Sequence record: PZ386967.1
Direction: 5' to 3' (one strand)
Length of the DNA: 64,000 nt
Source of the DNA: a phage
Below the pieces are notes generated by a model. It was not told the DNA's origin. It did not search any database and saw nothing but the letters and a program-made list of their open reading frames with translations. Positions 9,361 to 62,794 of the stretch are shown here, one piece after another (within the stretch, counting starts at the first letter, position 1; every line of letters starts with the position of its first letter). The translations under genes and the position numbers were made by a program.

Positions 9361-9390
9361 TTTAAGTTCAGAAACTGTTCAAAAGATGAA

Positions 9391-9424
9391 GGGGCTGCTA
9401 TAATAGCAGCTCCTTTTGTTTATT
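9391..9424 (+). terminator. terminator hairpin that also carries a TATAAT in its loop (terminator/promoter unit)
   Basis: GGGGCTGCTAT-AAT-AGCAGCTCC followed by TTTTGTTTATT; TTCAAA box 15 nt upstream of the TATAAT. Confidence 0.5.
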
Positions 9425-9434: not shown

Positions 9435-10094
9435 ATGTCCTACTCCCTGAAGGGGTTGATGAAGCGCCCCGTCCACACATTCTTTAAACCACCCGTCGTA
9501 AAGGGGATCTACCCAGCACGAGGGCAAATCTACTACGTCAAAGGCTCCAATGGTAGCGGTAAATCCACTGTGCCGTCTCAGCTGGCGGAGAGGGATCCTC
9601 AGGCGTATGTCGTGACCCATAATGGCAAGGTCATGCTGACTGTCTGTCCTTCGTTCAACGTGGTCTGTATCGGTAAATATGACAAGTCGAAGTCCAAGGG
9701 GGTTGATTCCCTGAAGGACACTGAGCAGATGTTGTTCGCGTTGTCTATTGCTGACCAACCAGAATACTTGAAATATGATGTGATTTTCGAAGGTATCATT
9801 CCATCCACATTATTGAGTTCTTGGATCCCCCGTCTGACACGCCCACCACGTGAATTGGTTGTGCTCTTTATGGACACTCCTCTTGAAACGTGTATCACCC
9901 GCGTTAAATCACGTAACGGCGGTGTGGACTTCAATGAAAGTCTGGTGGTCGAGAAGTGGGAGAGAGTTCATGACCATCGTCAACGACATAAAGACTTGTT
10001 CCCTACGGTAGCTGCGGGTATGATGAAGTCTCACGGCCTAACGGTAGACCAGGCTGTGATGGCATTCCTCTGTCGTGATTTTGGGAGTATCTGA
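9435..10094 (+). CDS. P-loop kinase, polynucleotide-kinase (Pnk) kinase-domain-like, no phosphatase domain
   Basis: Walker A GSNGSGKST in a context resembling T4 Pnk N-terminus (remembered GCPGSGKST); ORF track start 9423 is TTG, ATG at 9435 has GGAG SD; stop overlaps next gene start. Confidence 0.5.
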   Translation: MSYSLKGLMKRPVHTFFKPPVVKGIYPARGQIYYVKGSNGSGKSTVPSQLAERDPQAYVVTHNGKVMLTVCPSFNVVCIGKYDKSKSKGVDSLKDTEQMLFALSIADQPEYLKYDVIFEGIIPSTLLSSWIPRLTRPPRELVVLFMDTPLETCITRVKSRNGGVDFNESLVVEKWERVHDHRQRHKDLFPTVAAGMMKSHGLTVDQAVMAFLCRDFGSI

Positions 10095-11140
10095 TGGAAA
10101 TCAAAGCAATTAACAACAATGACATGCTGAAGCAGGCTGTCTTGGCTATCCGTGAATTCGGGATCGAATCTGATCCTGGTAATGCTGAAATCAATACTGA
10201 TAGCACCCGCTTCCTTGATGGTGTGACTATCACTGTTTCCGATATTCGTGACCGCTGGCTCTCCGTTGAAGGTCGCAACTCATCGGCTATCGCTGCCATC
10301 GGCGAGACCTTCTGGGTGTTGTCAGGTCGCAACGACATAAAGTTCCTGTCACGCGTATTGCCTCGCGCTGCTAACTTTTCGGATGATGGGGTAACATGGC
10401 GAGCTGCTTATGGTCCGCGTCTGTACGCCCATGGCCAGCTGGATAGCGTTATCAACCGCCTGCGCAAGAACCCAAACACTCGTCAGGCGTACCTCACCAT
10501 CTATGACCCGGCTCTAGATTCGGATGCTGGTCTGGCGAAGTTCAGCGAGAGCGGCGAAGCAAAGACTAAAGACATGGTGTGTAACCTGGCTCTGTTGTTC
10601 GCCATCGTTGAAGGTCGTCTGAACCTGACGGTCATCAATCGCTCACAGGATGTTCTGTGGGGGATGAGTTCAATCAACTTCATTGAGTTCTCTATTCTTC
10701 AGGAAGTGATTGCTCGGGTGTTAGATGTTGATGTCGGTCAGTACAAGCTCTTCTCCAACAATCTTCATTACTACAACAATGAAGTCAGCCAGAAGCAGCT
10801 GGGAAAGATCACGAAGGACACCAAAGTAGAAGCTGGGTTCATCAACACCATGATTCACTTCACGAACGTGACCAACCAGAACCATATCCGCAATCTGTTC
10901 ACTGGTGTGCTTCATCACTGTGATATCGGTAGCCCGTGGGAAACTGTGGTTGCTCACCTGAAGGAATACGATGCGGATCGCGGCCTGATTGTACAGATGG
11001 CGTACTGTCTGCACTGCAAACTGAACGAAAAGCTCATTAACCTGGACCTGATTCAGGATCATGGCTTGAACACCGCGCTCACCCATTCTCCGGTTGACCG
11101 CAAGATCGTTGATCCTAAGTTCCTGGAAGGTGTAGTATGA
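10094..11140 (+). CDS. thymidylate-synthase-fold pyrimidine hydroxymethylase / TS homolog with about 100-aa C-terminal extension
   Basis: ETFWVLSGRNDIKFL, WRAAYGPRLY, RQAYLTIYDP, catalytic Cys in MVCNLALLF, NRSQDVLWGMSSINF align to conserved ThyA blocks; Asn retained at the base-specificity position (uracil-type). Confidence 0.6.
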   Translation: MEIKAINNNDMLKQAVLAIREFGIESDPGNAEINTDSTRFLDGVTITVSDIRDRWLSVEGRNSSAIAAIGETFWVLSGRNDIKFLSRVLPRAANFSDDGVTWRAAYGPRLYAHGQLDSVINRLRKNPNTRQAYLTIYDPALDSDAGLAKFSESGEAKTKDMVCNLALLFAIVEGRLNLTVINRSQDVLWGMSSINFIEFSILQEVIARVLDVDVGQYKLFSNNLHYYNNEVSQKQLGKITKDTKVEAGFINTMIHFTNVTNQNHIRNLFTGVLHHCDIGSPWETVVAHLKEYDADRGLIVQMAYCLHCKLNEKLINLDLIQDHGLNTALTHSPVDRKIVDPKFLEGVV

Positions 11141-11706
11141 TGTACCCAAATCTTGAATTCTTTACGGGGCGCAAACGCTCCGGTAAGGACTTCTGTTTGG
11201 AGTCCCTCATCAGCTATCACCAACTACAGGGTGATATGGACATCCAGCGCCTTTCGTTCTCAGATGAACTGCGCCGTGTGGCCAACTACATCTACCCATG
11301 GCTGCCAGCGGAGGTAGAGGATGCCGTGAAGGACGTTCCTTACGTGCACCCTGATAACCCCAAGGGCTTAACTCCACGGCAGATCTGGCTTCATCTGGGC
11401 AGCGATACGGGCTTGCGTTACGTACAGCCTGATCTGTTCCTGGCATTCTTCAAGCGCTTCCAGCTTCCTCTGGTAGAGCAGAACCCCCACGTCCATTATA
11501 TCGTGAGTGATCTGCGTACCCCTCAGGAATATGAATGGGCGCTGAGTACGAAATGTCCTATCACCCGTATTTCAAAGGCCGACCGTGCTGGTATCATAGA
11601 GGACGATATAGAGGCTTTCATTGACCAAATGAAAGTGGACTACGAATTCCTCAATCCATTTGATGGTTGGGAACCGTTCGTTAAATTCTACGGAGAACGT
11701 AAATGA
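11137..11706 (+). CDS. 1: deoxynucleoside monophosphate kinase (T4 gp1-like)
   Basis: FTGRKRSGKDF matches remembered gp1 N-terminal SGVKRSGKD P-loop; translationally coupled to flanking genes. Confidence 0.55.
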   Translation: MMYPNLEFFTGRKRSGKDFCLESLISYHQLQGDMDIQRLSFSDELRRVANYIYPWLPAEVEDAVKDVPYVHPDNPKGLTPRQIWLHLGSDTGLRYVQPDLFLAFFKRFQLPLVEQNPHVHYIVSDLRTPQEYEWALSTKCPITRISKADRAGIIEDDIEAFIDQMKVDYEFLNPFDGWEPFVKFYGERK

Positions 11707-12257
11707 TCACAGCAGGACATATCAAAAGCCTGCTCGAACTCCAAAAGGCCACCAACGTGGCCTATTTTGGGGAAGAGTGGAAGAATGTATGGAGTCAGAA
11801 CGCAGTCATCAACTCTATCTATCGTGAGTGGGCAGAGTTCCTTGATGAAACCACCCGTGACTGGAAGGTCTATGGCAACGACATCAGGTTTGACCATACG
11901 AACGCAGTTTATGAACTGGTGGACGTGGTACACTTCATGTTGTGCTTCATCCTTGTGGACCGCACCAAAGGTGAGATCGAAGAAGAATTTGAAGTCCTTA
12001 GCAATCGCGAATTCACCCCATCTGCTTTGGGTGTTGTAGGGCATCGCAATGTTACGTACCGCCTTGGGCAATTCATGAACGATCCTTGCGTTGAGACTCT
12101 CATGTTCTTCCTGTCGTCTGCGTGTTCTTATATGGAGATCGACATTGAGACTTACATGCTGGCACACAAACGCAAGAACGATCGCAATCGTCTGCGTGCT
12201 TCTGGTGGTGTGGATTACGACAAGTCCGCAGAAACCCCTCTGACCCTGGAGTTCTAA
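11703..12257 (+). CDS. 56: all-alpha dNTP pyrophosphohydrolase (T4 gp56 dCTPase/dUTPase-like)
   Basis: EWAEFLDETTRDW and ELVDVVHFMLCFIL resemble the dimeric dUTPase/MazG metal-binding helices. Confidence 0.5.
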   Translation: MITAGHIKSLLELQKATNVAYFGEEWKNVWSQNAVINSIYREWAEFLDETTRDWKVYGNDIRFDHTNAVYELVDVVHFMLCFILVDRTKGEIEEEFEVLSNREFTPSALGVVGHRNVTYRLGQFMNDPCVETLMFFLSSACSYMEIDIETYMLAHKRKNDRNRLRASGGVDYDKSAETPLTLEF

Positions 12258-12799
12258 TGTTTACAGTCGTCGTTTCATACCATGCGGAGAACGCTGCTCA
12301 GGCATCCTCCAAATTCGCCGAGCACATCATCGGCGGCGGCCATAATGTATTCCTTACCGAATACAACAGGCCTGTTAAACCGGGCGACGGTCTTTCGGCG
12401 ACTGTTACGCATAAGATCGCCAGCGAGCAACCAGAGTCTCTGTTCAGAATGATCGAAGAGTATGCCAGTGGTGGCATCAAGATACCAGATGAACTGGTAG
12501 ACGTCTATTTCGAAGGCTCGATCTATTACATCCACGCTATGCCAAAGGATATAACCATTGAACAGATGATGTATATCCTGAATATAGCACTGAACACTGC
12601 GTGCATCAACCGCACGAACTACAACAATCTGCGCAATATGTACCTAACCGACCGGCATAATGACGCATCGTCACTTGTTGAGACAATGTCCCTGAAGAGC
12701 ATCCAAGAGGCGGTTAACATTTTGTCCCAGAAGGTTATGGGTGTAGACTTACTAACGACGATTAACAACAAAGAGGAAGTGAAATGGCCAGTTCATTAA
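12257..12799 (+). CDS. hypothetical protein
   Basis: 180-aa ORF between pyrophosphatase and uvsX; overlaps uvsX start by 16 nt. Confidence 0.4.
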   Translation: MFTVVVSYHAENAAQASSKFAEHIIGGGHNVFLTEYNRPVKPGDGLSATVTHKIASEQPESLFRMIEEYASGGIKIPDELVDVYFEGSIYYIHAMPKDITIEQMMYILNIALNTACINRTNYNNLRNMYLTDRHNDASSLVETMSLKSIQEAVNILSQKVMGVDLLTTINNKEEVKWPVH

Positions 12800-13869
12800 T
12801 GGACCGCATGCTGAAGGTTGCTAAGAAACACGATGACCAGGCTTCAGTGCTGTCCCAATCAGACGCTCTGGAACCGTCTATCATCTGTTCTACTGGTATT
12901 CCCCTGATCGACATCGCATGGTCTGGGCGTATTGACGGCGGTCTGATCTCCGGTATCAAGATGATGGTGGGTGATTCCCGTACCTTCAAAACGATGTTCG
13001 GCCTGGTCGATGTCAAGGCGTACATGGACAAGTTCCCTGATGCTATCTGCGTCTTTGCGGACTCAGAAAAGGGTGCCAACGCAGATTACTGGACCTCTAT
13101 GGATATTGACATGGACCGCGTCCTGTACGTACCGATCGACAACGTTGAACAGACCAAGATCCGCTTGCTACAGATCCTACAGGAAGTCAAGAAAGGCGAC
13201 CATGTTATTGTCTTCATCGACTCTATCAGCCAACTTCCCTCCACCAAGGAAGTTGAAGATGCGATCAAAGGGAACGACACTCAAGACATGACCCGCGCCC
13301 GTGCCCTCAACAGCTTCTGGCGTGTCATGACTCCTGAAATCAACAGCAAAAATCTCGTGTGTGTTTGGATCAACTCCTATTACGATGAGATCGGCAACCA
13401 GTATGCCGAGCCCAACATCAAAGGCGGCAAGCAGGGCTTCTTATCCTCCAACTTGATCTGGTTTATCACCCGTTCTCAGGTGAAGGAAGACAAAGATCTG
13501 CTGGGCTGGAACTTCAACATAAGCATCATGAAAGGTCGCCATGTCAAAGAGAAAGCCAAGCTCCCTGTGACGGTACTGTACAACGGTGGTATTGATCGCT
13601 GGAGCGGCCTGCTTGAGATCGCTCGTGCTCTGGGTTATGTTGATATGCCGTCTTCCGGCTGGTATGTGCGTACAGCCAAGGGTGGTTTCGATCCTGAGAA
13701 GGAAAAGAAATATCAGAAGCGTCAGATGGGTGATGATTTCTGGTATCCGCTGCTGGAGAATGTCAACTTCGCCGATGACGTGAAGAAAATGTTCGGTGTT
13801 TCTAACGGTACTGTTATGCCTGCTAACATGCTGGAGCAAATGGACCATGTTATTAACACAAGCGAATAA
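12784..13869 (+). CDS. uvsX: UvsX recombinase (RecA-like)
   Basis: RecA-fold blocks GIPLIDIAWSG, VIVFIDSISQL; size 361 aa; GAGGAAG SD; positioned before gp41 as in T4. Confidence 0.85.
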   Translation: MASSLMDRMLKVAKKHDDQASVLSQSDALEPSIICSTGIPLIDIAWSGRIDGGLISGIKMMVGDSRTFKTMFGLVDVKAYMDKFPDAICVFADSEKGANADYWTSMDIDMDRVLYVPIDNVEQTKIRLLQILQEVKKGDHVIVFIDSISQLPSTKEVEDAIKGNDTQDMTRARALNSFWRVMTPEINSKNLVCVWINSYYDEIGNQYAEPNIKGGKQGFLSSNLIWFITRSQVKEDKDLLGWNFNISIMKGRHVKEKAKLPVTVLYNGGIDRWSGLLEIARALGYVDMPSSGWYVRTAKGGFDPEKEKKYQKRQMGDDFWYPLLENVNFADDVKKMFGVSNGTVMPANMLEQMDHVINTSE

Positions 13870-28834: not shown

Positions 28835-29341
28835 TTATTTGTCAGGGTTCACTAAAACAGGGGTGGATACCAGTTCGCCGTTCTTCACAGAATGCTGGAC
28901 TACAACAAACTGATCGACCATGCGATATACTTCAATTCCAGCAGCCAGCATGTCAATAATGCCGTCTATGATACGATATGGTCGGTCATAGAACACTTTA
29001 GCGATCTTGCCACTGTCGATAATACGACGGGTGCACTCTGGGCATGGACTATGAGTGACAAACATCACTAGGCCACAACAGTCTTCAGTGTGCTGGGGGA
29101 GTTTGCTCAGAGCATTCTCCTCGGCGTGGATAACACCCACCGATACCAGTTGACCGTCTACTTCCTTCTCACAGACATTAGGAGCGCCAGGAGCAGTCCC
29201 GTTCCAACCGATAGACAGGGGCTGGTCAACACGCGGGTCAACGATAACACAGCCGACCTTCAGGCGCTGGGCATAGCTGGACAGGGCGTATGCATGAGCC
29301 GAGCGCATATGCGCAAATAACATACGGGGTTTGATAGCCAT
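28835..29341 (-). CDS. cd: dCMP deaminase (cytidine/deoxycytidylate deaminase family)
   Basis: Zinc motifs HAEENAL and SPCPECTRRI; ORF track start 29344 is GTG, adjacent ATG at 29341. Confidence 0.7.
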   Translation of the reverse strand: MAIKPRMLFAHMRSAHAYALSSYAQRLKVGCVIVDPRVDQPLSIGWNGTAPGAPNVCEKEVDGQLVSVGVIHAEENALSKLPQHTEDCCGLVMFVTHSPCPECTRRIIDSGKIAKVFYDRPYRIIDGIIDMLAAGIEVYRMVDQFVVVQHSVKNGELVSTPVLVNPDK

Positions 29342-37747: not shown

Positions 37748-38329
37748 TTATAGACCAAATTTGCTACGCCACTTTTCAACCTTGTGTTCAATAGCGTGCT
37801 CCACTTTAATGCGAGTGGCCATCAAAGAGGATCCATGGATCGCCCCTTCCCCACACCCCATGCGCGCAACATGCTTGATTAGGTCATTGACGAGTTGATC
37901 CAATCTGTCTTGACTGCGATAAGGCTGGTTGCACAACCGGATAATCCGGCCATGATAATGATGGATAAGATTCAGATGCTTTTGAGGATCACGATCAATC
38001 AGACGGAACCAGTCTTCTTCCAACAGATTAGAAGAAATATCGTTCACTGTCGCCATGTGGTTGATGACAGAGTCGATCATTTCGGCCTTGTTCATAGAGC
38101 CGCGCATTTGGACGTCGTCATAATCCATGACGTACAGAAGGTCAATAGCAGAGATAATGACATCAGCAACTTCGCCATTCAACGGCTCAGAAGATACTAT
38201 GCCATGAAACACATCAGACAGTTCACAGATCTCTTCACCTAGTTTGTTCAGAACAAACACAGGCGAGCGGTCTGGGGTATGAGCAGTGCAGTCATAAGAA
38301 GCGTCGACGATAGTGTGTAGAAATTTCAT
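37748..38329 (-). CDS. MazG-like nucleotide pyrophosphohydrolase (putative)
   Basis: LGEEICELSDVFHG...EVADVIISAIDLL resembles the MazG EExxE...ExxD helix pair. Confidence 0.45.
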   Translation of the reverse strand: MKFLHTIVDASYDCTAHTPDRSPVFVLNKLGEEICELSDVFHGIVSSEPLNGEVADVIISAIDLLYVMDYDDVQMRGSMNKAEMIDSVINHMATVNDISSNLLEEDWFRLIDRDPQKHLNLIHHYHGRIIRLCNQPYRSQDRLDQLVNDLIKHVARMGCGEGAIHGSSLMATRIKVEHAIEHKVEKWRSKFGL

Positions 38330-50374: not shown

Positions 50375-51610
50375 TCAGCGTTTCAAGAGTGCCATGAGGT
50401 TGACGCTGCTGGACTTCGGCTTGTCCTCAACCTTGCGCACAGGCATCTTCAGGTTCGTACATACCTCGGATGGCTCCCAGCGCGTACCCTTTTGCAGGTG
50501 CCAGATATGCAGAGGAACACCAGTCTCAAAGAACACAGGCATCTTCCACTTCTGGACGCCTGGAACGTGCCCTGCAGGAGCCTTTTCGCACAACAGGGTA
50601 TCTGGCAGCCAGAGCGAACGGGCTTCCCAGAGCGCTGCGCAGGAGTATTCAGGCCAGACGCGTTCCATGTAGTCTATTTCATCCCAGGTACGCTCTGCGT
50701 CCCACCCGATGTAACGGGTATTCTTCAGTCGGAAGAATTTCTTCAGCCAACAAGCACCGGAGGTTTCAAAGTTCAGACGGTTGATGAACGTCAGGTGTCC
50801 GAACTCAGCCACACAATCCTGGAACGCCTGCTCAAGGTCGGCCTCAAGGATGTCACACTCTTCATCCGTGATAGGGCAACCGTTGATCTTTTTCTTCCCG
50901 TGTTTAGTCACCCAATCGTCACGGTTGGACAAGAACGCCGCGCCATTACGGTTGGACTCGCTTCCATCACGATCACGCAGCATGAAGCCAGGGACGTCAA
51001 TGGTGTATTCGTTCCCGAAGACCATGTTCAGGGCTTCCAGGAAGTTCCAGGCGCTCAGGCGACCGAAGTATTTCCAGGACATCGCCGTGTCCCACAGCTG
51101 GGTGAATTGTTCTGTCTTATCGATGCACACCAACATCCCACGGAAAGCGTCATATTGAGTACGGCCAGCCAGCCAGTCAATATAGGACTGAACACACGGA
51201 ATCATCTTGGACTTGCGGTAGCGGCAATCGGTATCGAATCGCATGCGATCAAAGTTCAGATTATACCAATCAGAGAAGCGCTGCATCTCTTCCTTAGACT
51301 GAGGCGGCACAGGGAACTCACTGTAGATCGTCCACGGCCCGACGGCGTTATAGCAACAACCCCACAGGAATGCCATCCAGATCTTGCGCTCGACTTTCTG
51401 TTCGAGGCTGATGCCTTCAGTGACTTCGATCGCATAGTCCATCAGACGCATCTGCTGGTTGTGCTCTTCTGTGTAGGACAGCGCCTCCACCCAAGCCTTG
51501 AGCAGGTACATGCGATTCTCAGGCTTGCGATAATCAACAGCCAGGTCAATCGGGTACTTCCATTCAGCCGGAGGTGTATAGCCCGTCGGCATTTTAGATA
51601 AATGATGCAT
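50375..51610 (-). CDS. hypothetical 411-aa protein (candidate DNA-modification enzyme by context)
   Basis: GAGGAAG SD; Trp/Cys-rich soluble protein; no motif recognised. Sits in a block with P-loop NTPase and HAD phosphatase next to the DNA polymerase. Confidence 0.4.
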   Translation of the reverse strand: MHHLSKMPTGYTPPAEWKYPIDLAVDYRKPENRMYLLKAWVEALSYTEEHNQQMRLMDYAIEVTEGISLEQKVERKIWMAFLWGCCYNAVGPWTIYSEFPVPPQSKEEMQRFSDWYNLNFDRMRFDTDCRYRKSKMIPCVQSYIDWLAGRTQYDAFRGMLVCIDKTEQFTQLWDTAMSWKYFGRLSAWNFLEALNMVFGNEYTIDVPGFMLRDRDGSESNRNGAAFLSNRDDWVTKHGKKKINGCPITDEECDILEADLEQAFQDCVAEFGHLTFINRLNFETSGACWLKKFFRLKNTRYIGWDAERTWDEIDYMERVWPEYSCAALWEARSLWLPDTLLCEKAPAGHVPGVQKWKMPVFFETGVPLHIWHLQKGTRWEPSEVCTNLKMPVRKVEDKPKSSSVNLMALLKR

Positions 51611-51971
51611 CTTTCGCTTCCTCTTCAGGAGCCACAGCTTCAGGCTCGGGAGCCAACTGAATGTCTTCTGGTTTCACAAACCCCATCGGACGTTCCCACA
51701 TATCGATGAAGCGGCGGTCGGCGGTCACAAACCAAAGACGGGCTGCAGTGTGGGTCTTACCCGAGATGAACATCTGGGCATTCGTCTGGGTACGGAACGG
51801 AGCCGCCTGCAACCACTTACCGAAGTCTTTGGACGACGGATTGGCATTCAGCTGGAACTGAGGGATGACGCAGTTCTTTTCAGGAATAAGGCGCACGGCA
51901 GTAATGTGCTTGGCGTTTCCGGTGTAGTCAATCGCAACAGCCACAGCATCGCGAGGGATTTGAATTTTCAT
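51594..51971 (-). CDS. hypothetical protein
   Basis: 125-aa ORF. Confidence 0.35.
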   Translation of the reverse strand: MKIQIPRDAVAVAIDYTGNAKHITAVRLIPEKNCVIPQFQLNANPSSKDFGKWLQAAPFRTQTNAQMFISGKTHTAARLWFVTADRRFIDMWERPMGFVKPEDIQLAPEPEAVAPEEEAKDASFI

Positions 51972-52171
51972 TTTGGTTCCTTGAATATTTTATAGCCAGC
52001 AGCGCCGATAGCCATAATCGCGCCGATACAATACAACATGGTCAGGTTCATCTTCTCTGAGGTTGTTAAGTCCAGAGGGGTGAAATGATAGGCTAGGGCA
52101 GTACACATTGAAACGGCTGCCATAACCAGACCAATGAACAACAGATAATTAGACAACCGTTTCATGATCAC
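51968..52171 (-). CDS. small membrane protein (hypothetical)
   Basis: 67 aa, two hydrophobic helices. Confidence 0.3.
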   Translation of the reverse strand: MIMKRLSNYLLFIGLVMAAVSMCTALAYHFTPLDLTTSEKMNLTMLYCIGAIMAIGAAGYKIFKEPK

Positions 52172-53085
52172 CCCTTCTTCATCAGGTCAAGGAGAGAGCG
52201 CGACGCTGCCTTCGTTGCTTCTGGCTGGGCGCTCGCCTTGGTTTTAGTTTTGGATGCCTTCTGCGGCTTCTCAGGGACTCTGTGCGCCAAAGGATCCTGG
52301 CCGCCGATTTCACGAGTCATCGGATTGGTTTCACAGTAGGCGTAGAAGTCTTTGGTGTCCATGTTAACTTCACGCAGTTCGGACCGTATCTGATGACAAA
52401 TCGCATTACCCACAACCCACAGCGGGGCGTCGTATGGGAGCACCGCCAACTCGGACTGCTGTTTGGTCGTGAACTCCTGGGTGTTGGTCTCTGGCGCTTT
52501 ATACAGGATATCCTGTCCGCTGTAATCATCAACAGCCACAGTGAAGCCCAGCGCCAGCATTTCGGCCTTCGACTTCTCAAACTCCTTGGAGTAAGATTCG
52601 TTGCGTGACCAGCCGGAGTTCCCTGCTTCTTTACCAGATCGACCACGGATACGAGCATCGTACTGATAGCGGTCGGGGTACGCAAAGTACAGCAGCGCCA
52701 ATGATTCAATCGGATAGTTCTTGAACATCCATTCAGGACGCCATTTGTCCGACAGCATGAGGGGTTCACCCTCACACACCAGAGTGTATCCCTGAACCAA
52801 CCAGCACTTGATTAGATCACGAGCAATATCGCCTGAGCCTGTAGCAGCATGGATTGCATCCATTGAAGTCCAGGAAGCCAGGCCGGATTTGTTAGACACG
52901 GTGTACTGTCCAACGAAGATTAACTTCAGCTCTCCGAACTTCAGGCCAAACGGGCGAGTCTTGTCACCAACGGTGTAGGTCAGTTCGGTAGGCTCCAGCT
53001 TCGTACGGAGCCATTCGATGAACTGGACCACTCTCGTACCCTTGCCCGTGGCCGAGGTGCCTTTCACTACGATAATTTTTGCCAT
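52168..53085 (-). CDS. P-loop NTPase / kinase (putative)
   Basis: Walker A VVKGTSATGKGT at N-terminus; 305 aa. Confidence 0.45.
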   Translation of the reverse strand: MAKIIVVKGTSATGKGTRVVQFIEWLRTKLEPTELTYTVGDKTRPFGLKFGELKLIFVGQYTVSNKSGLASWTSMDAIHAATGSGDIARDLIKCWLVQGYTLVCEGEPLMLSDKWRPEWMFKNYPIESLALLYFAYPDRYQYDARIRGRSGKEAGNSGWSRNESYSKEFEKSKAEMLALGFTVAVDDYSGQDILYKAPETNTQEFTTKQQSELAVLPYDAPLWVVGNAICHQIRSELREVNMDTKDFYAYCETNPMTREIGGQDPLAHRVPEKPQKASKTKTKASAQPEATKAASRSLLDLMKKG

Positions 53086-53390
53086 TACACAGCATCCTCA
53101 ATACGCCAGCTCACGCCGCCCAGCCAAGGTGCCCAGAACACAGCAACCTGCGGACGACCGTTTTCTTCAAACTTAACTTTATACTGGTCGTCGAAGTTAT
53201 AGAAGATTTCATCCGATTCAGAGCGCTGGCCGATCTTCACCAGTACATCATGAAGAGCCTTGGCTGCGCCGATAGGAGTTGGAGTCTCCTGCTGACGAAT
53301 GAAGTTGTTCACATGGTTAATCACGCCATCCATGTCGCTGTCACCGGAACGCTTGTCTGGGGTTTCCCCGAACTTATTCTGATCTTGCAC
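53085..53390 (-). CDS. hypothetical protein
   Basis: 101-aa ORF. Confidence 0.35.
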   Translation of the reverse strand: MQDQNKFGETPDKRSGDSDMDGVINHVNNFIRQQETPTPIGAAKALHDVLVKIGQRSESDEIFYNFDDQYKVKFEENGRPQVAVFWAPWLGGVSWRIEDAV

Positions 53391-53399
53391 GATGTCCTC

Positions 53400-54179
53400 C
53401 TATCGGACGTATTGATAATGACTAATCAGGCGGTTCACCACTTCGAAGATATTGTGGTTCAGGAAGTCGAAGTGATTCTGGCCTTCTACTGGTTTAATAT
53501 AAAGCATGTCTTCCGAATTCGAAAGATCCAGTTTTTCATAATTGCCCTGAGGAACAAAGATGACAAAGATGTTGTTCAGGCCGCACGGCTCGACATACTT
53601 CGGATTGTCATCAATCAGGACATCGCCAGCCAGCAGATGCTTTTCGTCGGTACTGACAAACCCGTTGAAGATACCAGGGAACTTATCATAGACAAACTGA
53701 CGCTTGCTGCGCTCGTGTTCCGGCTCACACTTGGACACTGCGATGAATTCAACATTGTCGAAATCTTCAAGCAAGATCTCCTTCAGATTTACCAGGAACT
53801 CGTAAGCGCCGGGGAGCGGGTTCATCTTGGCGTACAAGTCAGGGCGACGCCACCAGTCCATAGGATCGTTACCGCTTGGCACACGTTGTTTGTGCATCCC
53901 CAATTGGACTTCATGGTATAGCCACGCCGGATGCGCACGTTCACGCATCAGAATAGCCAGGTCGCCAGCATGGGACATATAACACTCTTTGGTGATCGGC
54001 TGGAACTGGTATGACTTATGTTCCCCCGTAGCGATAGCAGCGGCGGCGATGTTCTCTTCGTTAAACCACTGCACCCAAGGGGAGAGGCTGTCGACCAACG
54101 TCAGGTCAACATCCACGAGGACGCGATACAGGCCACCGACCTTTGATTTCATATCATAGATACAAACCAGGTTGTTCAT
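53400..54179 (-). CDS. HAD-superfamily phosphatase / 5'(3')-deoxyribonucleotidase-like
   Basis: HAD motif I DVDLT (VLVDVDLTLVD) near N-terminus. Confidence 0.45.
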   Translation of the reverse strand: MNNLVCIYDMKSKVGGLYRVLVDVDLTLVDSLSPWVQWFNEENIAAAAIATGEHKSYQFQPITKECYMSHAGDLAILMRERAHPAWLYHEVQLGMHKQRVPSGNDPMDWWRRPDLYAKMNPLPGAYEFLVNLKEILLEDFDNVEFIAVSKCEPEHERSKRQFVYDKFPGIFNGFVSTDEKHLLAGDVLIDDNPKYVEPCGLNNIFVIFVPQGNYEKLDLSNSEDMLYIKPVEGQNHFDFLNHNIFEVVNRLISHYQYVR

Positions 54180-54526
54180 TTGTCTTCCTCAACTTTATCG
54201 TAGCCTGTAGCAACACACTGTTCTTCGGTACAATCTGCATACAGAACGACGGAGGCCTGCTTCACGTAGGTGATGCAGTGGTAAGTTTCGTCTTCCTGGA
54301 TGGAATCGTCATAGTTGCAGACAGTTTGGAGCGGACCCGGAGTAGTGTTGTCCAGTGCTGCATGCGCCTTGATGGTGTCTTCCATCTTGGACACGGCCTG
54401 CTCATTGGTGAACGTCGGCGTGTCAAGGTCTACAGTAGAAGCAACGTCCAGAAGGGTGGAACACGCAGTGGTAGAGAAAGCCAGAGCACACACCAGAAGA
54501 ATCTTATTGAGTTTCATTTCAATCAC
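54176..54526 (-). CDS. secreted/lipoprotein-like small protein (hypothetical)
   Basis: Signal-peptide-like N-terminus ending in Cys (LLVCALAFSTTAC). Confidence 0.4.
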   Translation of the reverse strand: MIEMKLNKILLVCALAFSTTACSTLLDVASTVDLDTPTFTNEQAVSKMEDTIKAHAALDNTTPGPLQTVCNYDDSIQEDETYHCITYVKQASVVLYADCTEEQCVATGYDKVEEDK

Positions 54527-54553
54527 CTGTTTGTCAAAGGGTTAACAGGGGGA

Positions 54554-54579
54554 ATTATATCCCCCTTTGGTTTATTGAA
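54554..54579 (-). promoter_or_regulatory. TTCAAT-box / TATAAT promoter with -10 in loop of GGGGGA/TCCCCC hairpin
   Basis: Minus TTCAAT 54579-54574, 14-nt spacer, TATAAT 54559-54554; immediately downstream of DNA polymerase stop. Confidence 0.4.
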
Positions 54580-57579
54580 TCAACCTTTCTTCTTTTGCAT
54601 CATGGCAAGAAGGTTCACACGGCGCTTGTGCGACCAGCCGACCACGTCAAGGATGGACTGAATCGGGTCAATGAAGGACTTCTCAAAGGCCGCCTGATAA
54701 TCCACCCATTTGCCCAGACCAAGCTCCTCAGGGAAGAACTCAGGATATGCGAAGTAATTCTGGCCGAATGGGTTGCCTGGCTTCAACAACACCATCTGTA
54801 CCTTATCACCCGACTCGATCATCGGTAGACCCAGATCTTCGTTCTTCTCAACCAGACGGTTGTAGCCCACACACGCCTTGGCAGCAAAATGAGCACCAGA
54901 GATGAACGATCCGTCAGCAGCCACACACTTCTCTATGTCGGACACGCCGGAAGCCTTGGCGATATCGTCTACAGAGAGTTTCATGTACTCCTCTTTGTAC
55001 TGGGAGATGAGCGCCTGTACTTCCTCTTCAGTGCCGAGTAGGATCTTCTCATAGCACTTGACAAGACGCTCACGACACCATTCCGGCGTGGTGGACTTGC
55101 GGGCTTCCAGACCTTTGAACTTGATCTTCGGCTTCTCGTACTTGATACCCTCACTGTCGTACACGGCCATGGCATACATCTTCTTGGCTCGCCAGACAGC
55201 GGCTGACGCAATGACCTCACGCTCCCATACCATGCGCTGTTCAAATCCGTTCATGGTGTTACACAGAAGCTGTGCCCACTCATTGGTCTTCGGCTGGTAG
55301 TTGTCTTTGATCCATTGGTCGATATTATCAACCATAGCATGATGGTCAGTAACATCAGGCCACAACTGCTTGACAAGACGCTCAATGCAGATGTAGTTGG
55401 AGTCGGTATCACCTGCGATGACGAAGTCCTGGCCTGTTGTACCACACAGCTTGTTCAGATAGTCATCAGTGTAACGCTTGTTCCACTTGTTGATCAGCTG
55501 ACCGGATGTGGTGATGGCTTCGGCAATGTTGAGGTTGAAGTACTCTTTGAACCAGACGTTCGAGATAGCGCCATAACCTGCGTTCATCAAGATCTTCAGA
55601 CCTTGCTGTAGGGTGTCTTGAGCAACGCCCAGATCTTCCCACTTCTTCATCACTTCGGTCAGTGCATCAAGATCAATGTTCTTGTGCTCTTCATACCACT
55701 CTGGGTCATAGTAGCGAGACTTCATGGCAGACTCAAGATGGAAGTCGCCCTTCGACATCTCTTTACACCAGCCAGCCCACTGCTCATACTTCAGACCCTT
55801 GGCCTTCTCTACTTTACGGTCGCTGTAGATACCACGCATGATTTCAGACAGGAACGACATCTTCTCGTTGCTGAAGAATTGAACGTTCGGCGTGAACGAC
55901 ACGTTGTAGCGGCGCAGGGTTTCAAAGTGGAACTCACCCAGGGCAACCAACTCATCAACAACCTGCAGGCGTTCGTCAACCGCACGCAACAGCTTGTCGT
56001 GAAGGGCTTTCATCAACCGACGTTTGTGCATCGGCGTTGCCATGTTATTCATCTGAGCAGCCAGCTCTTCACACATAGCCTCAATAATCTCGCGGCGCTG
56101 GTGTTTGTCGCCAACGATAGTCTCTGGACCGAGGTTGTACTGCTGAATGATGTGAGGATACAGGGAATTCAAATCTTCCGAGAAGACCCAGAAGTAGATT
56201 CCTGGTGTCACATCCATGACGTATGCACCCTCAAAGTCGGTCGGACCATCGTATACACGCTGGATCTTAGGCACTATCCCCTTCTCGTACAGGCGATAGT
56301 AGCACATGGCCAGCCACGGAGCCACAGTTCCCAGACCGTCTTCATAGTTGGACTTGGTGCGGTAGGCCAGGACGAACATCAGCTGGAGCAGGCGCAGCTT
56401 CTGTTCAAGTCGCCATACCAGCTTAACGTCTTTGATACCATATCGGGTGTGTTTGCAGTAGTCGTTGAAGTACAGATCAAAGAGCGACTTGCTCTCACTG
56501 TAGTCCATCTTCTTCTCACCCAGCTCACAATACGCAATCCAGTCAAGAGAGTAGCGTTCACGGGTGGTGTACGTGTGTTTCTTGTAGATCTGCATATAAT
56601 CGAGCATAGGACAGCCCACGAACTGATACGTCGTGATATCGCCCTTCTTATCGCGAATGATACGCTTCTTAATGATACCCCAAGGACTGAGGCGCGACGT
56701 TTCAGCCTCACCCAGAACCTGATTCATGCGCTCAACAAGATACGGGCTATCGAACGTTTCAATGTTCCAGCCTGTCCAGCCGTCGAACTGACGCTCCGAC
56801 CAGAAGTCAAGGAAAGATCGCAGCAGATCTTGTTCGGTGGTGAACTCCTGATAAACAACCTCAAGGCCGCCGATCTCTTTGTCTTCGGTGTCGTATGCGA
56901 ATTTGTTACGATCTTTGGCACAGGGCATACCCCAGACCATGAACTTATTGGTCGCCATATCCTGAAGCTGGATCAGGGTAATGGGGAACGCCGCATTCAT
57001 GTCTTGGGTGATCTTGCCGTTGCTGTCAATGATAGGGAACTGATCAGTGACGTTGTTGCTGATGAAAGAACCAGGGAAGTGCTCACGGACAAAGTCATGG
57101 TTGGCCAGCACTTGTTTATGGAAGCGGCGAATGCGCGCCTCATTCCCTTTGAACGTCTGCTGCTCAATAGTTGGGTGAGGGAATGGACCTTTGGTCATCT
57201 TTCCGTCTTTCCACCCGGCGGAGAATACTTCGATATCGAGGTTAGCAATATGGATGTTGGAGTAATCCGGCTCAATCTTTCCAGGAAAGCTATGGGCGAT
57301 GAACTGGTATGCATAATCGGTCTGCCCATAAATGGCAGCACCCTGGACTTCCTTGTACTCTTCAAGATAGTTGTCAGCGTCACGCATGGAAGGGAACTGC
57401 TTGGCTACCAGGGGTTCATTGAGAAGGCCGACCTTTTCAACATTTGAATAGTCAGCCGTGGGTAAATAGAGAGTGGGTTCGAATTTCTTTTTCAACAGAC
57501 GGCGATTACCCATGTCATCTGCAATTCGAATCAACAGGTCATTGCCCCTGCGGGCAACGTTCGTATAGAAAACGGTCAT
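54580..57579 (-). CDS. 43: DNA polymerase, family B (T4 gp43-like)
   Basis: Exo I NLDIEVF, Exo II NIETFDSPYL, pol motif A DLNSLYP, motif B KILMNAGYG, motif C AGDTDS; GGAG SD; 999 aa. Confidence 0.9.
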   Translation of the reverse strand: MTVFYTNVARRGNDLLIRIADDMGNRRLLKKKFEPTLYLPTADYSNVEKVGLLNEPLVAKQFPSMRDADNYLEEYKEVQGAAIYGQTDYAYQFIAHSFPGKIEPDYSNIHIANLDIEVFSAGWKDGKMTKGPFPHPTIEQQTFKGNEARIRRFHKQVLANHDFVREHFPGSFISNNVTDQFPIIDSNGKITQDMNAAFPITLIQLQDMATNKFMVWGMPCAKDRNKFAYDTEDKEIGGLEVVYQEFTTEQDLLRSFLDFWSERQFDGWTGWNIETFDSPYLVERMNQVLGEAETSRLSPWGIIKKRIIRDKKGDITTYQFVGCPMLDYMQIYKKHTYTTRERYSLDWIAYCELGEKKMDYSESKSLFDLYFNDYCKHTRYGIKDVKLVWRLEQKLRLLQLMFVLAYRTKSNYEDGLGTVAPWLAMCYYRLYEKGIVPKIQRVYDGPTDFEGAYVMDVTPGIYFWVFSEDLNSLYPHIIQQYNLGPETIVGDKHQRREIIEAMCEELAAQMNNMATPMHKRRLMKALHDKLLRAVDERLQVVDELVALGEFHFETLRRYNVSFTPNVQFFSNEKMSFLSEIMRGIYSDRKVEKAKGLKYEQWAGWCKEMSKGDFHLESAMKSRYYDPEWYEEHKNIDLDALTEVMKKWEDLGVAQDTLQQGLKILMNAGYGAISNVWFKEYFNLNIAEAITTSGQLINKWNKRYTDDYLNKLCGTTGQDFVIAGDTDSNYICIERLVKQLWPDVTDHHAMVDNIDQWIKDNYQPKTNEWAQLLCNTMNGFEQRMVWEREVIASAAVWRAKKMYAMAVYDSEGIKYEKPKIKFKGLEARKSTTPEWCRERLVKCYEKILLGTEEEVQALISQYKEEYMKLSVDDIAKASGVSDIEKCVAADGSFISGAHFAAKACVGYNRLVEKNEDLGLPMIESGDKVQMVLLKPGNPFGQNYFAYPEFFPEELGLGKWVDYQAAFEKSFIDPIQSILDVVGWSHKRRVNLLAMMQKKKG

Positions 57580-57658
57580 GTAATTCTCCAGGTTATCCGT
57601 GCCGTTAGCACGTGGGCATATTTAACCATAGAGCCATTCATTGACCAAGGAGTTTATT

Positions 57659-58231
57659 ATGGCAATCCCCCTCGTTGGTATGATCCCAGGGGCGCTCAAG
57701 CAACTCTGGAACCTCGGGACTGATTTGATCCAATATAAGCGGGAAGTTGTACAGGCCAAACACGACGTCAAGCTGGAGGCCATCAAGTCCTCCTCAGATT
57801 GGGAGCTGTCTAAGATTACCGAAGTCGGCGGGTCTTGGAAAGACGAATTCTGGACTATCGTGTTGGCCATACCCGCCATCCTCGTCATGACTGCTCCGGT
57901 TGTGGAACTGATTCTGTTCCCTGGTGAGTATCATAAAGGGGATTTCATCAAAGCAGTAATCGGTGGCCTTCAGGCACTAGATACCGCACCTGAATGGTAT
58001 ACCTATTCGTTATTGACAGCAATTAGTGCATCATTCGGTATCAAAGGCTACAACCACTACAAAAGCAACAGGCGAAAAGCCCAAGCTATGGATGCTCTCA
58101 AGCAATTTGGGGTTCGGGTCGTACAGAAAGATCCCACTGTTGTTACTCAGTCGGGTGCTCCCGATCTTGAGTCTGCTCCCCCAGCTGGGTCTACTGCGAC
58201 CTCTGGTGCGTGGCCTGATCTGAAGAAATAA
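57659..58231 (+). CDS. multi-pass membrane protein (hypothetical; holin-like possibility)
   Basis: ORF track start 57641 is TTG; ATG at 57659 has AAGGAG SD; hydrophobic helices. Confidence 0.4.
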   Translation: MAIPLVGMIPGALKQLWNLGTDLIQYKREVVQAKHDVKLEAIKSSSDWELSKITEVGGSWKDEFWTIVLAIPAILVMTAPVVELILFPGEYHKGDFIKAVIGGLQALDTAPEWYTYSLLTAISASFGIKGYNHYKSNRRKAQAMDALKQFGVRVVQKDPTVVTQSGAPDLESAPPAGSTATSGAWPDLKK

Positions 58232-58235
58232 GTTC

Positions 58236-58263
58236 AAGGGGAGGAAACTCCCCTTTCTTTTGG
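58236..58263 (+). terminator. rho-independent terminator
   Basis: AAGGGGAG-GAAA-CTCCCCTT followed by TCTTTT. Confidence 0.6.
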
Positions 58264-58273
58264 TGTTTAGGGA

Positions 58274-58486
58274 ATGAATGTGGTAAACAAGAGATTGCTC
58301 GTCACCCAAGGCGGGGCGACGATAGTGCGCGGAAGGATCTATGAACAAACACAGCTGGGTGATCACAAGACACGCCTGACTATTAAGGCTCCCGATGGTG
58401 GTTGGCCAACAAAGGTGATTGTCCCAGACGGTCTCATAGAACGAGGGTCGGCGGTGTATAAAGGAGCAGAGTTCAAAATTTATTAA
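58274..58486 (+). CDS. hypothetical protein
   Basis: 70-aa ORF. Confidence 0.3.
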   Translation: MNVVNKRLLVTQGGATIVRGRIYEQTQLGDHKTRLTIKAPDGGWPTKVIVPDGLIERGSAVYKGAEFKIY

Positions 58487-58581
58487 AATATTTATTGAAT
58501 AAAGTTTACTTCTTCAATAACTGGCGTATACTTCTAATTGTAGTACGAACAAACAACAATCTGAAGAGAAGGAAATACATC

Positions 58582-59139
58582 ATGGCAATCGAAATTATCG
58601 CTCAATCCAAATCTGGTAAAACTGTAATGTACGGCACTGAAGAAGGCCGCGCAATCACCACTCTGGGCACAATTGACGGTTCCAACCCAGTGAAAGGCGG
58701 TCGCTACCTGGTTGAATACGGTTCACACCTGCTGATGGTAAGCAAAGTCGATGGTCGTGAAATCATGATTCCCCGCAAAGAGTACTTCGACTCGCGCATT
58801 GAAGCCATGAACTTCTTCCTTTTCCAGGAACGTCACGAACTGTTCGTTGAAGCGAAAGACGCAGGCCTGGACGATGCGACTGCCGAACTGATCGCTGAAG
58901 GTAAAATGACTCTTGAGGCTGCTCTGGGTGACATGGATTGCGATGCTGAAGCCCATTACATCGAATATTCCGCTTATCAGAATGAATGCGAAGACGATCC
59001 TGAAGATGACGGCTTCGACCCTGACCTTCACGGTGGCGAGGATGACAACACTCCTTCCCTGGAAGTGATCATGGCAGGCGGTCAGGCCGCTTGGGAGTGG
59101 CAGAACGAAAAGAACGCCTGGCTGGATTCCCACCTTTAA
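58582..59139 (+). CDS. hypothetical acidic protein
   Basis: ORF track 58495..59139; ATG at 58582 follows AGAAGGAAATACATC; highly acidic C-terminus. Confidence 0.45.
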   Translation: MAIEIIAQSKSGKTVMYGTEEGRAITTLGTIDGSNPVKGGRYLVEYGSHLLMVSKVDGREIMIPRKEYFDSRIEAMNFFLFQERHELFVEAKDAGLDDATAELIAEGKMTLEAALGDMDCDAEAHYIEYSAYQNECEDDPEDDGFDPDLHGGEDDNTPSLEVIMAGGQAAWEWQNEKNAWLDSHL

Positions 59140-59156
59140 TGTGAAGAAATAAAGAA

Positions 59157-59182
59157 AGGGGCTTAACGCCCCTTTTCTTATT
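59157..59182. terminator. bidirectional terminator between convergent genes
   Basis: AGGGGC-TTAA-GCCCCT with T-runs on both strands. Confidence 0.6.
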
Positions 59183-59636
59183 CTTCCCAGAAGTCTTCGT
59201 CGTCCCCGACAGCAGCCAGTTCCGTGTCCAGTTCTTCATCGGTAAACGGTGGCAGCACCCCGTTCTGAATCAGATAATCCATCTCATCATCTTCCAGCTG
59301 CAGGTCGGTGGCAATATACAGCGCTCCGCTGCCCTCTTCGTCCGTCTCGATACTGTACGAAGTGTATGGCACCCCATTCACTGTAATGATGATAGACGTT
59401 GGATCCTTGGGATCTACGTGCGCCTCGAACGGCACACCATCAATCGGTGCATCTTCTAGGAAGGTAGCAAGTGCTACGGCGGCGCGGACAACATCAGTGC
59501 CTTCAACGCCCGCATAGATCTCTTCCGCGCCTGTCTCTTCACGATCAAACAGCTCAATCGTGATACCGTCTTGAACACCAGTCCATACAGGGATGTCATT
59601 GGTGTATTCTGATTCAAACAATTTGGAGGTTGGCAT
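59178..59636 (-). CDS. hypothetical acidic protein
   Basis: 152-aa ORF, Asp/Glu-rich. Confidence 0.4.
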   Translation of the reverse strand: MPTSKLFESEYTNDIPVWTGVQDGITIELFDREETGAEEIYAGVEGTDVVRAAVALATFLEDAPIDGVPFEAHVDPKDPTSIIITVNGVPYTSYSIETDEEGSGALYIATDLQLEDDEMDYLIQNGVLPPFTDEELDTELAAVGDDEDFWEE

Positions 59637-60974: not shown

Positions 60975-61044
60975 TCTATTTTCTCCTGTAGACATTGGCT
61001 TATCATAGTGTATCTACAGGAGTATAGAAAAGGAGAATCTCGGA

Positions 61045-62785: not shown

Positions 62786-62794
62786 TTGCAAATC

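Follow-up and report, generated by a model that had tools for sequence, protein, structure and literature searches.

The four genes at 9435-12257 of the 64-kb stretch of phage DNA analysed here (the window) most likely, with a probability of roughly 0.9, provide the precursor supply and the first DNA-level enzyme for the 5-NeOmdU thymidine hypermodification of Ackermannviridae. The evidence for this reading consists of family membership, active-site residues and orthology to the kinases, the transferase and the decarboxylase of Salmonella phage ViI, the activities of which have been measured. An enzyme set for a 5-hydroxymethyl pyrimidine pool had been proposed in the initial annotation, and this proposal is borne out by the ViI orthologs, the hydroxymethylase residues, the PHROG families and the hypermodification genes further downstream in the window. 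By analogy, the DNA of the window phage probably contains 5-NeOmdU. This base has been measured in ViI, CBA6, CBA120 and 1.255.O, and Ag3, LIMEstone and SKML-39 have been counted among the 5-HMUDK phages (PMC5889632); the enzyme activities of the pathway have also been assigned (PMC8989533). In the literature, 5-NeOmdU measurements come from Kuttervirus phages and a Vibrio phage, and no nucleoside analysis was found for the window phage or its genus.

Organization of the locus

The window shares 98.5% nucleotide identity with Escherichia phage vB_EcoM-ZQ1, an Aglimvirinae (Ackermannviridae) phage, and the gene order is identical in all related phage records (n=268). The four open reading frames (ORFs) lie on the + strand and encode products of 219, 348, 189 and 184 aa (Table 1). 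Start-to-stop overlaps were seen throughout, as expected from the proposed translational coupling of the four genes; the junctions along the chain are TGATG, ATGA, ATGA and TAATG, with overlaps of 1, 4, 4 and 1 bases, respectively. The coupling runs past 12257 into an ACT-like gene and then uvsX (12784-13869), and because these two genes overlap onward from the four-gene set, the operon is a chain of six genes. The ATG at 9435 is the correct start of the kinase gene, since it is preceded by a GGAG at a distance of 7 nt and the window kinase and ViI gp67 begin with the same residues (MSYSLKGL).

The 5' boundary of the operon is marked by a terminator-like hairpin, which has a 13-pair stem in a terminator scan and an RNA fold z of -5.2, and which is nearly invariant from ViI through Taipeivirus to Aglimvirinae. 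Because no compensatory changes were found in this hairpin, it is not claimed as a regulatory RNA. A promoter scan upstream of the operon gave no convincing promoter, and a search against Rfam returned four tRNAs only, all distant from the operon. ORFs on the - strand inside the genes (e.g., 10721-11149 and 11688-12167) were judged spurious because annotated relatives have no genes there. The ACT-like protein is only 37% identical to its counterpart in the relative CRW-SP2. The kinase gene is co-translated with the genes of the precursor enzymes.

Table 1. Features of the operon and of the associated pathway genes in the window
Feature	Position	Strand	Evidence
Terminator-like hairpin	9388-9416	+	G+C-rich, conserved, with a T-run after it; 19 nt upstream of kinase ATG
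Predicted 5-hydroxymethyl-dU (5-hmdU) DNA kinase, type 1 (ViI gp67 ortholog)	9435-10094	+	PF18748; 88% identity
Predicted dUMP hydroxymethylase, thymidylate synthase (TS)-fold core and MilA-like C-terminal helical domain	10094-11140	+	PF00303; phrog_3676
T4 gp1-type deoxynucleoside monophosphate (dNMP) kinase	11137-11706	+	phrog_139; P-loop; 1DEK fold match
All-alpha dNTP pyrophosphatase (dimeric dUTPase/T4 gp56 type)	11703-12257	+	PF08761; phrog_173
Phage ACT-like protein	12257-12799	+	PF24021, E 2.3e-79; TAATG junction with pyrophosphatase gene; overlaps uvsX
dCMP deaminase, supplying dUMP	28835-29341	-	PF00383, E 4.3e-16; phrog_174; 63.5% to ViI Vi01_030
Second, MazG-like nucleotide pyrophosphatase, candidate for dTTP/dUTP clearance	37748-38329	-	phrog_1247, E 5e-35; 51% to ViI orf11
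Amino acid:DNA transferase (ViI gp247 serine:DNA transferase ortholog)	50375-51610	-	PF18724 ADDT, E 7e-60; 89.5% identity
5-hmdU DNA kinase, type 2 (ViI gp243 ortholog)	52168-53085	-	PF18747 HMUD2, E 3e-158; 84.5% identity
NT5C-like 5'-deoxynucleotidase, candidate dTMPase	53400-54179	-	PF06941, E 1.5e-8, above cut-off; phrog_420, phrog_2643
Phage polymerase	54580-57579		
PLP-dependent enzyme (ViI gp226 decarboxylase ortholog)	59781-60995	-	91% identity; phrog_3650; PALP 29 bits, below cut-off

The kinase is an ortholog of a DNA kinase

The first product of the operon matches Pfam family PF18748 (HMUDK_HMUD1) over 195 of the 196 profile positions (E 1.6e-108, 361 bits vs a cut-off of 27). It is 88% identical to ViI gp67 (YP_004327432), and in both phages the kinase gene lies directly upstream of the TS-like gene. 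ViI gp67 phosphorylates 5-hmdU in DNA in vitro (PMC8989533). Thus, the product is an ortholog of ViI gp67 and is predicted to be a 5-hmdU DNA kinase, in agreement with its earlier designation as a candidate DNA-level kinase. The earlier description as "Pnk-like" stands in part: the protein is a P-loop kinase with a Walker A motif (G37SNGSGKS44), but the resemblance to polynucleotide kinase (PNK) is weak, with an AAA_33 match of 20 bits that falls below the cut-off and no PNK match in the PDB, where a sequence search gave generic P-loop matches only. A weak second match is phrog_761, named "thymidylate kinase". NCBIfam models were uninformative for the kinases, and likewise for the nucleotidase, the PLP enzyme and the ACT-like protein.

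The gp67-type kinase has been lost in CRW-SP2, which has kept the gp243-type kinase, and the former is therefore not indispensable. It is conceivable, but on balance unlikely, that the two DNA kinases are not simply redundant, that the gp67-type kinase sets the fraction or the sequence contexts of 5-hmdU that proceed to 5-NeOmdU rather than being returned to thymine, and that the loss in CRW-SP2 would then alter the level or pattern of modification.

The TS-fold enzyme groups with hydroxymethylases

The TS fold with a catalytic Cys, which had been recognized before, is supported by a match to PF00303 (E 1.1e-15) and by the invariance of C163, together with D160, N195, R183, D186, H225 and Y227, among 42 homologues. 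The enzyme is 77% identical to ViI orf66. When it was compared with ThyA and hydroxymethylases at the profile and structure levels, it grouped with the hydroxymethylases. All seven NCBIfam ThyA equivalog models scored far below their cut-offs (16-58 bits vs 108-427; best 57.9 vs 327). Similarity was highest to the PaMx11-type (E 6e-43) and SPO1-type gp29 (E 2e-32) enzymes, followed by MilA (E 1.5e-17) and ThyA (~1e-6 to 1e-9), and the enzyme is nearer to the first two than to T4 gp42 or ThyA.

Residues at the active site point in the same direction. D160, three residues before the catalytic C163, aligns with D145 of T4 dCMP hydroxymethylase, at a position occupied by Leu143 in E. coli TS; an Asp at the T4 position has a water-activating role (PMC6400193). 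The uracil-type Asn of the initial annotation corresponds to N195, which HMMER aligned with the TS Asn that marks base specificity; cytosine enzymes have Asp there. To match N195 with ThyA Asn177, an insertion of one residue is required, as it is relative to T4 gp42 and MilA. This insertion before N195 is common to SPO1-type and PaMx11-type hydroxymethylases, in which the WGxxxxN spacing matches. In addition, R130 and S184 occupy the MilA Lys133' and Ala176 positions, which mark ribose vs deoxyribose preference, Arg/Ser being the deoxyribose type (PMC5175136).

The structure model (pLDDT 93.8) contains a confident helical domain after residue ~240. The best PDB match in both sequence and fold was the hydroxymethylase MilA, which aligned over the full length including the C-terminal domain (TM 0.75/0.81), whereas ThyA structures aligned over the core only (245-270 columns). 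The C-terminus forms a five-helix domain that superposes on that of MilA, in place of the ThyA-type tail that closes over the folate. The C-terminal extension of roughly 100 aa is therefore real, but it is not the distinguishing feature suggested previously because a MilA-like domain is shared across the enzyme clade, which is a small addition to the known picture. The protein is thus probably a dUMP hydroxymethylase, and its product would be 5-hmdUMP. In the papers on Ackermannviridae consulted here, the name hydroxymethylase for this enzyme rests on homology, not on assay.

The dNMP kinase and the pyrophosphatase

The two remaining labels, gp1-like and gp56-like, hold at the PHROG level, and for the kinase at the fold level as well. 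The dNMP kinase, 90% identical to ViI dnk, shares phrog_139 with T4 gp1 (E 1.2e-47 and 1.8e-65, respectively), as well as the P-loop G-x-K-R-S-G-K-D (G11RKRSGKD). Pfam DNMK (PF21448) did not match it at E <= 0.01 (T4 gp1 scores 358 bits), a PDB sequence search gave no match, and a profile of 14 homologues retrieved only phosphomevalonate kinase P-loops from the PDB. A fold search was needed because the sequence profiles did not reach T4 gp1; the top PDB match was 1DEK (E 1.9e-6), for which the TM was moderate (0.56).

The pyrophosphatase matches PF08761 with 37.3 bits (cut-off 22.9) and is 61% identical to the ViI dUTPase. It shares phrog_173 and an ELVD motif with T4 gp56, and its acidic metal-binding motifs, E42xxE45 and E71xxD74, align with Campylobacter dUTPase 1w2y. 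As judged from the sequences, the dNMP kinase presumably acts on the pathway nucleotide, and the pyrophosphatase may act on dUTP, dTTP or dCTP.

Other pathway genes and the proposed pathway

The dCMP deaminase noted previously at 28835-29341 is real and lies on the - strand, and further genes of the pathway are present in the window (Table 1). A gp160-type aGPT-Pplase1 had no match within the 64-kb window; the ViI gene sits in a genome region outside the window, and the gene is present in relatives (also PMC10458263). The genes of the gp243, gp247 and gp226 types, located at 50-61 kb, had gone unmentioned in the first reading.

We propose that dUMP would be fed by the dCMP deaminase and the pyrophosphatase of the operon. 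The TS-like enzyme, using Cys163 and methylene-tetrahydrofolate, would form an exocyclic methylene intermediate, to which water rather than hydride would be added with Asp160 in the place of Asp145 of T4 dCMP hydroxymethylase, yielding 5-hydroxymethyl-dUMP. The gp1-type kinase may convert this product to the diphosphate and the host NDP kinase to the triphosphate, and the phage polymerase would then put 5-hmdU into DNA in place of T. After replication, the DNA kinase of the operon and its paralog (52168-53085) would phosphorylate the hydroxymethyl group on DNA, the gp247-type transferase would attach serine, and the gp226-type PLP enzyme would decarboxylate the serine adduct to 5-(2-aminoethoxy)methyl-dU.

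Comparison with known systems

The closest known counterpart is orf67-orf63 of ViI (Vi01), where gp67 5-HMUDK, a dUMP hydroxymethyltransferase named "thyA", dnk and dUTPase are encoded in the same order as in the window, with four-gene identities of 88, 77, 90 and 61% and with the same ACT-like gene and uvsX downstream. The distal partners gp243, gp247 and gp226 are also found in both phages. The two differ in that ViI belongs to Cvivirinae and the window phage to Aglimvirinae, and the window pyrophosphatase is markedly more diverged. In the Bacillus hmU phages, the hydroxymethylase (SPO1 gp29 type) has a homologous core, with E 2e-32 in the comparison with gp29 from phage Goe9 (an ortholog), the Asp-x-x-Cys and WGxxxxN motifs are shared, and the pool logic of deaminase, pyrophosphatase, nucleotidase and dNMP kinase is the same (PMC8989533). 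However, 5-hmdU is the final base in these phages, in which a DNA kinase, a transferase and a PLP enzyme are all lacking, and the C-terminal regions of the hydroxymethylases show no sequence similarity.

MilA, the CMP 5-hydroxymethylase of mildiomycin biosynthesis (PDB 5jnh, 5b6d), has the extra five-helix C-terminal domain and an Asp three positions ahead of the catalytic Cys, as the window enzyme does, but it carries Asp186, Lys133' and Ala176 (cytosine, ribose) where the window enzyme carries Asn195, Arg130 and Ser184 (uracil, deoxyribose) (PMC5175136). T4 gp42, gp1 and gp56 represent the same enzyme classes, with PHROG families shared for gp1 and gp56, and T4 likewise replaces a canonical pyrimidine via the nucleotide pool; in T4, however, cytosine is modified (Asp179) and then glucosylated, and the genes are scattered. 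Pairwise BLAST to T4 gp42, gp56 and gp1 gave marginal matches only (E 5e-5, 0.003 and 0.005 among the three).

Alternative explanations

Most GenBank records annotate the set as an ordinary operon for dTTP supply and dUTP sanitation, in which the TS-like protein would be a canonical thymidylate synthase and its neighbors would serve as thymidylate (or nucleotide) kinase, dNMP kinase and dUTPase. Many of these records carry the names "thymidylate synthase", "thymidylate kinase" and "dUTP diphosphatase", and the PF00303 and PF08761 matches, along with the weak phrog_761 match, would also suit such an operon. This explanation appears extremely improbable in view of the sub-threshold scores with the ThyA equivalog models (16-58 bits vs 108-427), the Asp160 at the ThyA Leu143 position and the MilA-like domain that replaces the ThyA C-terminal tail (PMC6400193), the 88% identity of the kinase to a proven DNA-base kinase (PMC8989533) and the hypermodification genes downstream in the window. 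Just as improbable is a kinase that acts on free nucleotides such as 5-hmdUMP and leaves the DNA-level step to its gp243-type paralog. Such an activity would account for the place of the kinase gene in the precursor operon, where it is translationally coupled to pool-enzyme genes, and would be compatible with CRW-SP2, which has the gp243-type kinase without the gp67-type one. Nevertheless, purified ViI gp67 and gp243 both gave a phosphorylated 5-hmdU nucleotide from 5-hmdU DNA (PMC8989533), the operon already has a separate gp1-type dNMP kinase, and the adjacency of kinase and hydroxymethylase recurs in SP10 and in phages of the PaMx11 type, where the kinase is a DNA kinase.

It is also quite improbable, although somewhat less so, that 5-hmdU DNA is made and that the final base in Aglimvirinae is other than 5-NeOmdU, carrying a different group or remaining as bare 5-hmdU. 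No DNA chemistry was found in the literature for Agtrevirus or Limestonevirus, and identity to ViI is much lower for the pyrophosphatase (61%) and the dCMP deaminase (63.5%) than for the rest of the enzymes. By contrast, the enzymes that determine specificity are close orthologs of their ViI counterparts, at 89.5% for the serine transferase and 91% for the decarboxylase, and reviews describe strict conservation of the gene set throughout the family (PMC11721090, PMC8472413).

Significance

Publications of 2018 and 2021 already described the hypermodification pathway favored here, as well as the neighboring kinase and hydroxymethylase genes of ViI-like phages (Ag3, LIMEstone and SKML-39 among them), and the whole scheme has been published for Ackermannviridae (PMC5889632, PMC8989533, PMC10458263). 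The additions made here are the MilA-like C-terminal domain common in the enzyme clade and the loss of the gp67-type kinase in CRW-SP2. For the window, the value lies in correct annotation, and the finding itself brings no new biology; in public records, the DNA kinase still goes by the name of "terminase small subunit" or "thymidylate kinase", while the hydroxymethylase is listed as "thymidylate synthase". For the family, this gene set allows Ackermannviridae phages to swap ~40% of their thymidines for 5-NeOmdU, a protective base.

Operon organization and conservation

An ORF scan of the + strand found four ORFs of 219, 348, 189 and 184 codons between 9435 and 12257, with start/stop overlaps at the junctions (TGATG, ATGA, ATGA and TAATG), confirming the overlapping four-gene operon proposed in the initial annotation. 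The coupling runs beyond 12257, where the ACT-like gene and uvsX overlap too, giving a translationally coupled chain of six genes. ATG 9435 is the true start of the kinase gene, because GGAG lies 7 nt upstream and the N-terminal residues are identical to the start of gp67 from Salmonella phage ViI. The 2.9 kb operon region matched 268 phage records, almost all from Ackermannviridae, with 98.5% identity to Escherichia phage vB_EcoM-ZQ1 and 96-98% to other Aglimvirinae phages, e.g., AV101. The gene order is also that of ViI (orf67, thyA (orf66), dnk (orf65), dUTPase (orf63), orf62 and uvsX).

A hairpin with a 13-pair G+C-rich stem followed by a T-run (GGGGCTGCTATAATAGCAGCTCC plus T-run; loop TATAAT) is positioned 19 bases 5' of the kinase start (folding z = -5.2 against shuffled sequence). 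It is almost invariant among three Ackermannviridae lineages, across which no compensatory changes were observed; the flanking intergenic bases vary between genera, and its lower stem, when extended, is able to pair with the kinase ribosome-binding site. The hairpin may act as a terminator, as part of a promoter or in the control of translation. At the other end of the operon, the ACT-like protein (PF24021), coupled between the pyrophosphatase and uvsX, evolves much faster than its neighbors: it shares 37% identity with its counterpart in the Aglimvirinae Salmonella phage CRW-SP2 (OR464140), compared with 55-87% for the pathway proteins. A role in sensing small molecules for the supply of nucleotides or serine is purely speculative.

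Features of the proposed hypermodification pathway and its surroundings
Feature	Coordinates	Strand	Remarks
Hairpin	9388-9416		
5-hmdU DNA kinase	9435-10094	+	88% identity to ViI
TS-like enzyme	10094-11140	+	77% identity to ViI
dNMP kinase	11137-11706	+	90% identity to ViI
Pyrophosphatase	11703-12257	+	61% identity to ViI
ACT-like gene	12257-12799		
uvsX	12784-13869		
dCMP deaminase	28835-29341	-	
MazG-like pyrophosphatase	37748-38329	-	
Amino acid:DNA transferase (ADDT)	50375-51610	-	PF18724; 89.5% identity to ViI gp247
phrog_4163 protein	51594-51971	-	conserved, without known function
Second DNA kinase (HMUD2)	52168-53085	-	PF18747; 84.5% identity to gp243
DUF7254 protein	53085-53390	-	conserved, without known function
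NT5C-like deoxynucleotidase	53400-54179	-	
DNA polymerase	54580-57579	-	
PLP enzyme	59781-60995	-	91% identity to gp226
Four tRNA genes	62060-63033	-	Ser-GCT, Tyr-GTA, Asn-GTT, Met-CAT

The thymidylate-synthase-like enzyme, a probable hydroxymethylase

The second product of the operon has a thymidylate-synthase (TS) fold (PF00303, E 1.1e-15) and failed all NCBI ThyA equivalog models (best score 58 bits; cut-off 327). Grouping with canonical ThyA, named in the initial annotation as evidence that would refute its reading, is not what was seen. The catalytic Cys and uracil-type Asn recognized initially hold up as Cys163 and Asn195, which are invariant in an alignment of 42 homologs together with Arg183, Asp186, His225, Tyr227 and Asp160. 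Asn is the uracil-type residue, with Asp in cytosine enzymes (PMC5175136); alignment of Asn195 to the ThyA Asn requires a one-residue insertion, and the WGxxxxN spacing is common to the SPO1-type and PaMx11-type hydroxymethylases. Asp160, three residues before the nucleophile, aligns to Asp145 of T4 dCMP hydroxymethylase, which activates the substrate water and is replaced by Leu143 in E. coli TS (PMC6400193), and Arg130 and Ser184 are deoxyribose-type residues. Similarity to a PaMx11-type enzyme (E 6e-43) and the SPO1 gp29 ortholog (E 2e-32) is much greater than to T4 gp42 (E 5e-5) or ThyA structures. Bacteria (Klebsiella pneumoniae, Rhizobium rhizogenes, Paenarthrobacter and Herbiconiux) also encode homologs of the core, and metagenomes contain others within fusion proteins of 470-590 aa (all among proteins P0036-P0120).

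The C-terminal extension is real, but it is not the distinguishing feature that had been suggested, since it is general in the hydroxymethylase clade, where it stands in place of the ThyA tail sealing the folate site. A confident AlphaFold model built from the 42-sequence alignment (pLDDT 93.8) is helical between about residues 262 and 338, and its best PDB match was the CMP hydroxymethylase MilA over the full length (342 columns, TM 0.75/0.81), whereas with ThyA structures the match was limited to the core (245-270 columns, TM about 0.54). MilA carries an extra five-helix C-terminal domain distant from the active site and is insoluble without it (PMC5175136). Similarly, long, poorly conserved C-terminal regions occur clade-wide, for example in enzymes of the SPO1 type (383 aa), of the PaMx11 type (348 aa) and of SP10 (382 aa).

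The dNMP kinase and pyrophosphatase

The T4 gp1-like and gp56-like assignments were both supported. The dNMP kinase falls in phrog_139 (E 1.2e-47) as T4 gp1 does, shares its GxKRSGKD P-loop, and its model (pLDDT 87.7) has T4 gp1 (1DEK) as best PDB fold match (E 1.9e-6, TM 0.56); Pfam DNMK did not match the product, and its sequence profiles did not reach T4 gp1. A search of 5.8 billion proteins returned only 13 homologous clusters, down to 61% identity, and those with source names all came from Ackermannviridae-type phages, so that the family looks very narrow. The pyrophosphatase passed the PF08761 cut-off, shares phrog_173 with T4 gp56 and conserves the acidic ExxE and ExxD motifs. Its counterpart activity in hmU phages has dUTP and dTTP as substrates for hydrolysis (PMC8989533).

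A proposed pathway for thymidine hypermodification

The most likely pathway is as follows. The dCMP deaminase, found at its initially annotated position, on the - strand, and the pyrophosphatase would supply dUMP, which the TS-like enzyme would convert to 5-hmdUMP and the gp1-type kinase with host NDP kinase to 5-hmdUTP, while thymidine nucleotides would plausibly be removed by nucleotidase-like and pyrophosphatase-like enzymes. After the polymerase has synthesized 5-hmdU DNA, the base would be phosphorylated by two DNA kinases, serine added by the transferase and decarboxylated by the PLP enzyme, yielding 5-(2-aminoethoxy)methyl-dU (5-NeOmdU). The post-replicative steps have been demonstrated with ViI orthologs (PMC5889632, PMC8989533), and our assignment of the pool steps is an inference from the protein families involved and the precedent of hmU phages; by the same analogy, the MazG-like and NT5C-like enzymes are candidates for the dTTPase/dTMPase activities.

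The region 50375-60995 constitutes a second hypermodification cluster, ordered from the polymerase side as polymerase, a 116-aa ORF, NT5C-like, DUF7254, HMUD2 kinase, phrog_4163 and ADDT transferase, with the PLP enzyme at the far end, past the polymerase; the DUF7254 and phrog_4163 proteins thus sit among known pathway genes. Within the 64-kb window, a gp160-type gene is the sole pathway gene missing, and its ViI counterpart lies in a region that the window does not span. In ViI, a third MazG-like gene adjoins gp160 (ViI stretch L007, 8726-9589).

The scheme itself is already known. Phages with the 5-hmdU DNA kinase include Ag3, LIMEstone and SKML-39, 90-92% nucleotide relatives of the window, and the kinase is co-associated with a dUMP hydroxymethyltransferase (PMC5889632); the same genes were named in SW16-7 (PMC10458263), a 92% relative, and reviews describe the set as conserved in all Ackermannviridae (PMC11721090, PMC8472413). 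For Agtrevirus and Limestonevirus themselves, we found no nucleoside chemistry.

The gp67-type DNA kinase and its loss in CRW-SP2

The first product of the operon covers the full profile of PF18748 ('5-hmdU DNA kinase', E 1.6e-108) and carries the Walker A motif GSNGSGKS; its ViI ortholog, gp67 (YP_004327432), phosphorylates 5-hydroxymethyl-dU in DNA as a purified protein (PMC8989533). The supposed likeness of the operon's kinase to the kinase half of polynucleotide kinase (PNK) was only weakly visible, with AAA_33 scoring below the cut-off and no PNK among its matches in a PDB search. PHROG and RefSeq name the family 'terminase small subunit', which is wrong because ViI's own small terminase adjoins its large terminase. 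The misannotation is systematic (RefSeq records NC_015296, NC_013693 and NC_019487): besides 'terminase small subunit' (phrog_800, RefSeq), the label 'thymidylate kinase' is attached to the 5-hmdU DNA kinase, and the second DNA kinase is mislabeled 'guanylate kinase' (phrog_4409).

In CRW-SP2, about 170 nt (stretch L009, 1032-1200) stand in place of the kinase gene. Besides the conserved hairpin and the ribosome-binding site, a remnant of 24 kinase codons persists there. Whole-genome tblastn found no gp67-type kinase and recovered all other pathway genes, including the gp243-type kinase and gp160. CRW-SP2 is thus a natural knockout, showing that the gp67-type kinase is dispensable, and the loss is consistent with redundancy of the two DNA kinases, a point left open previously (PMC5889632).
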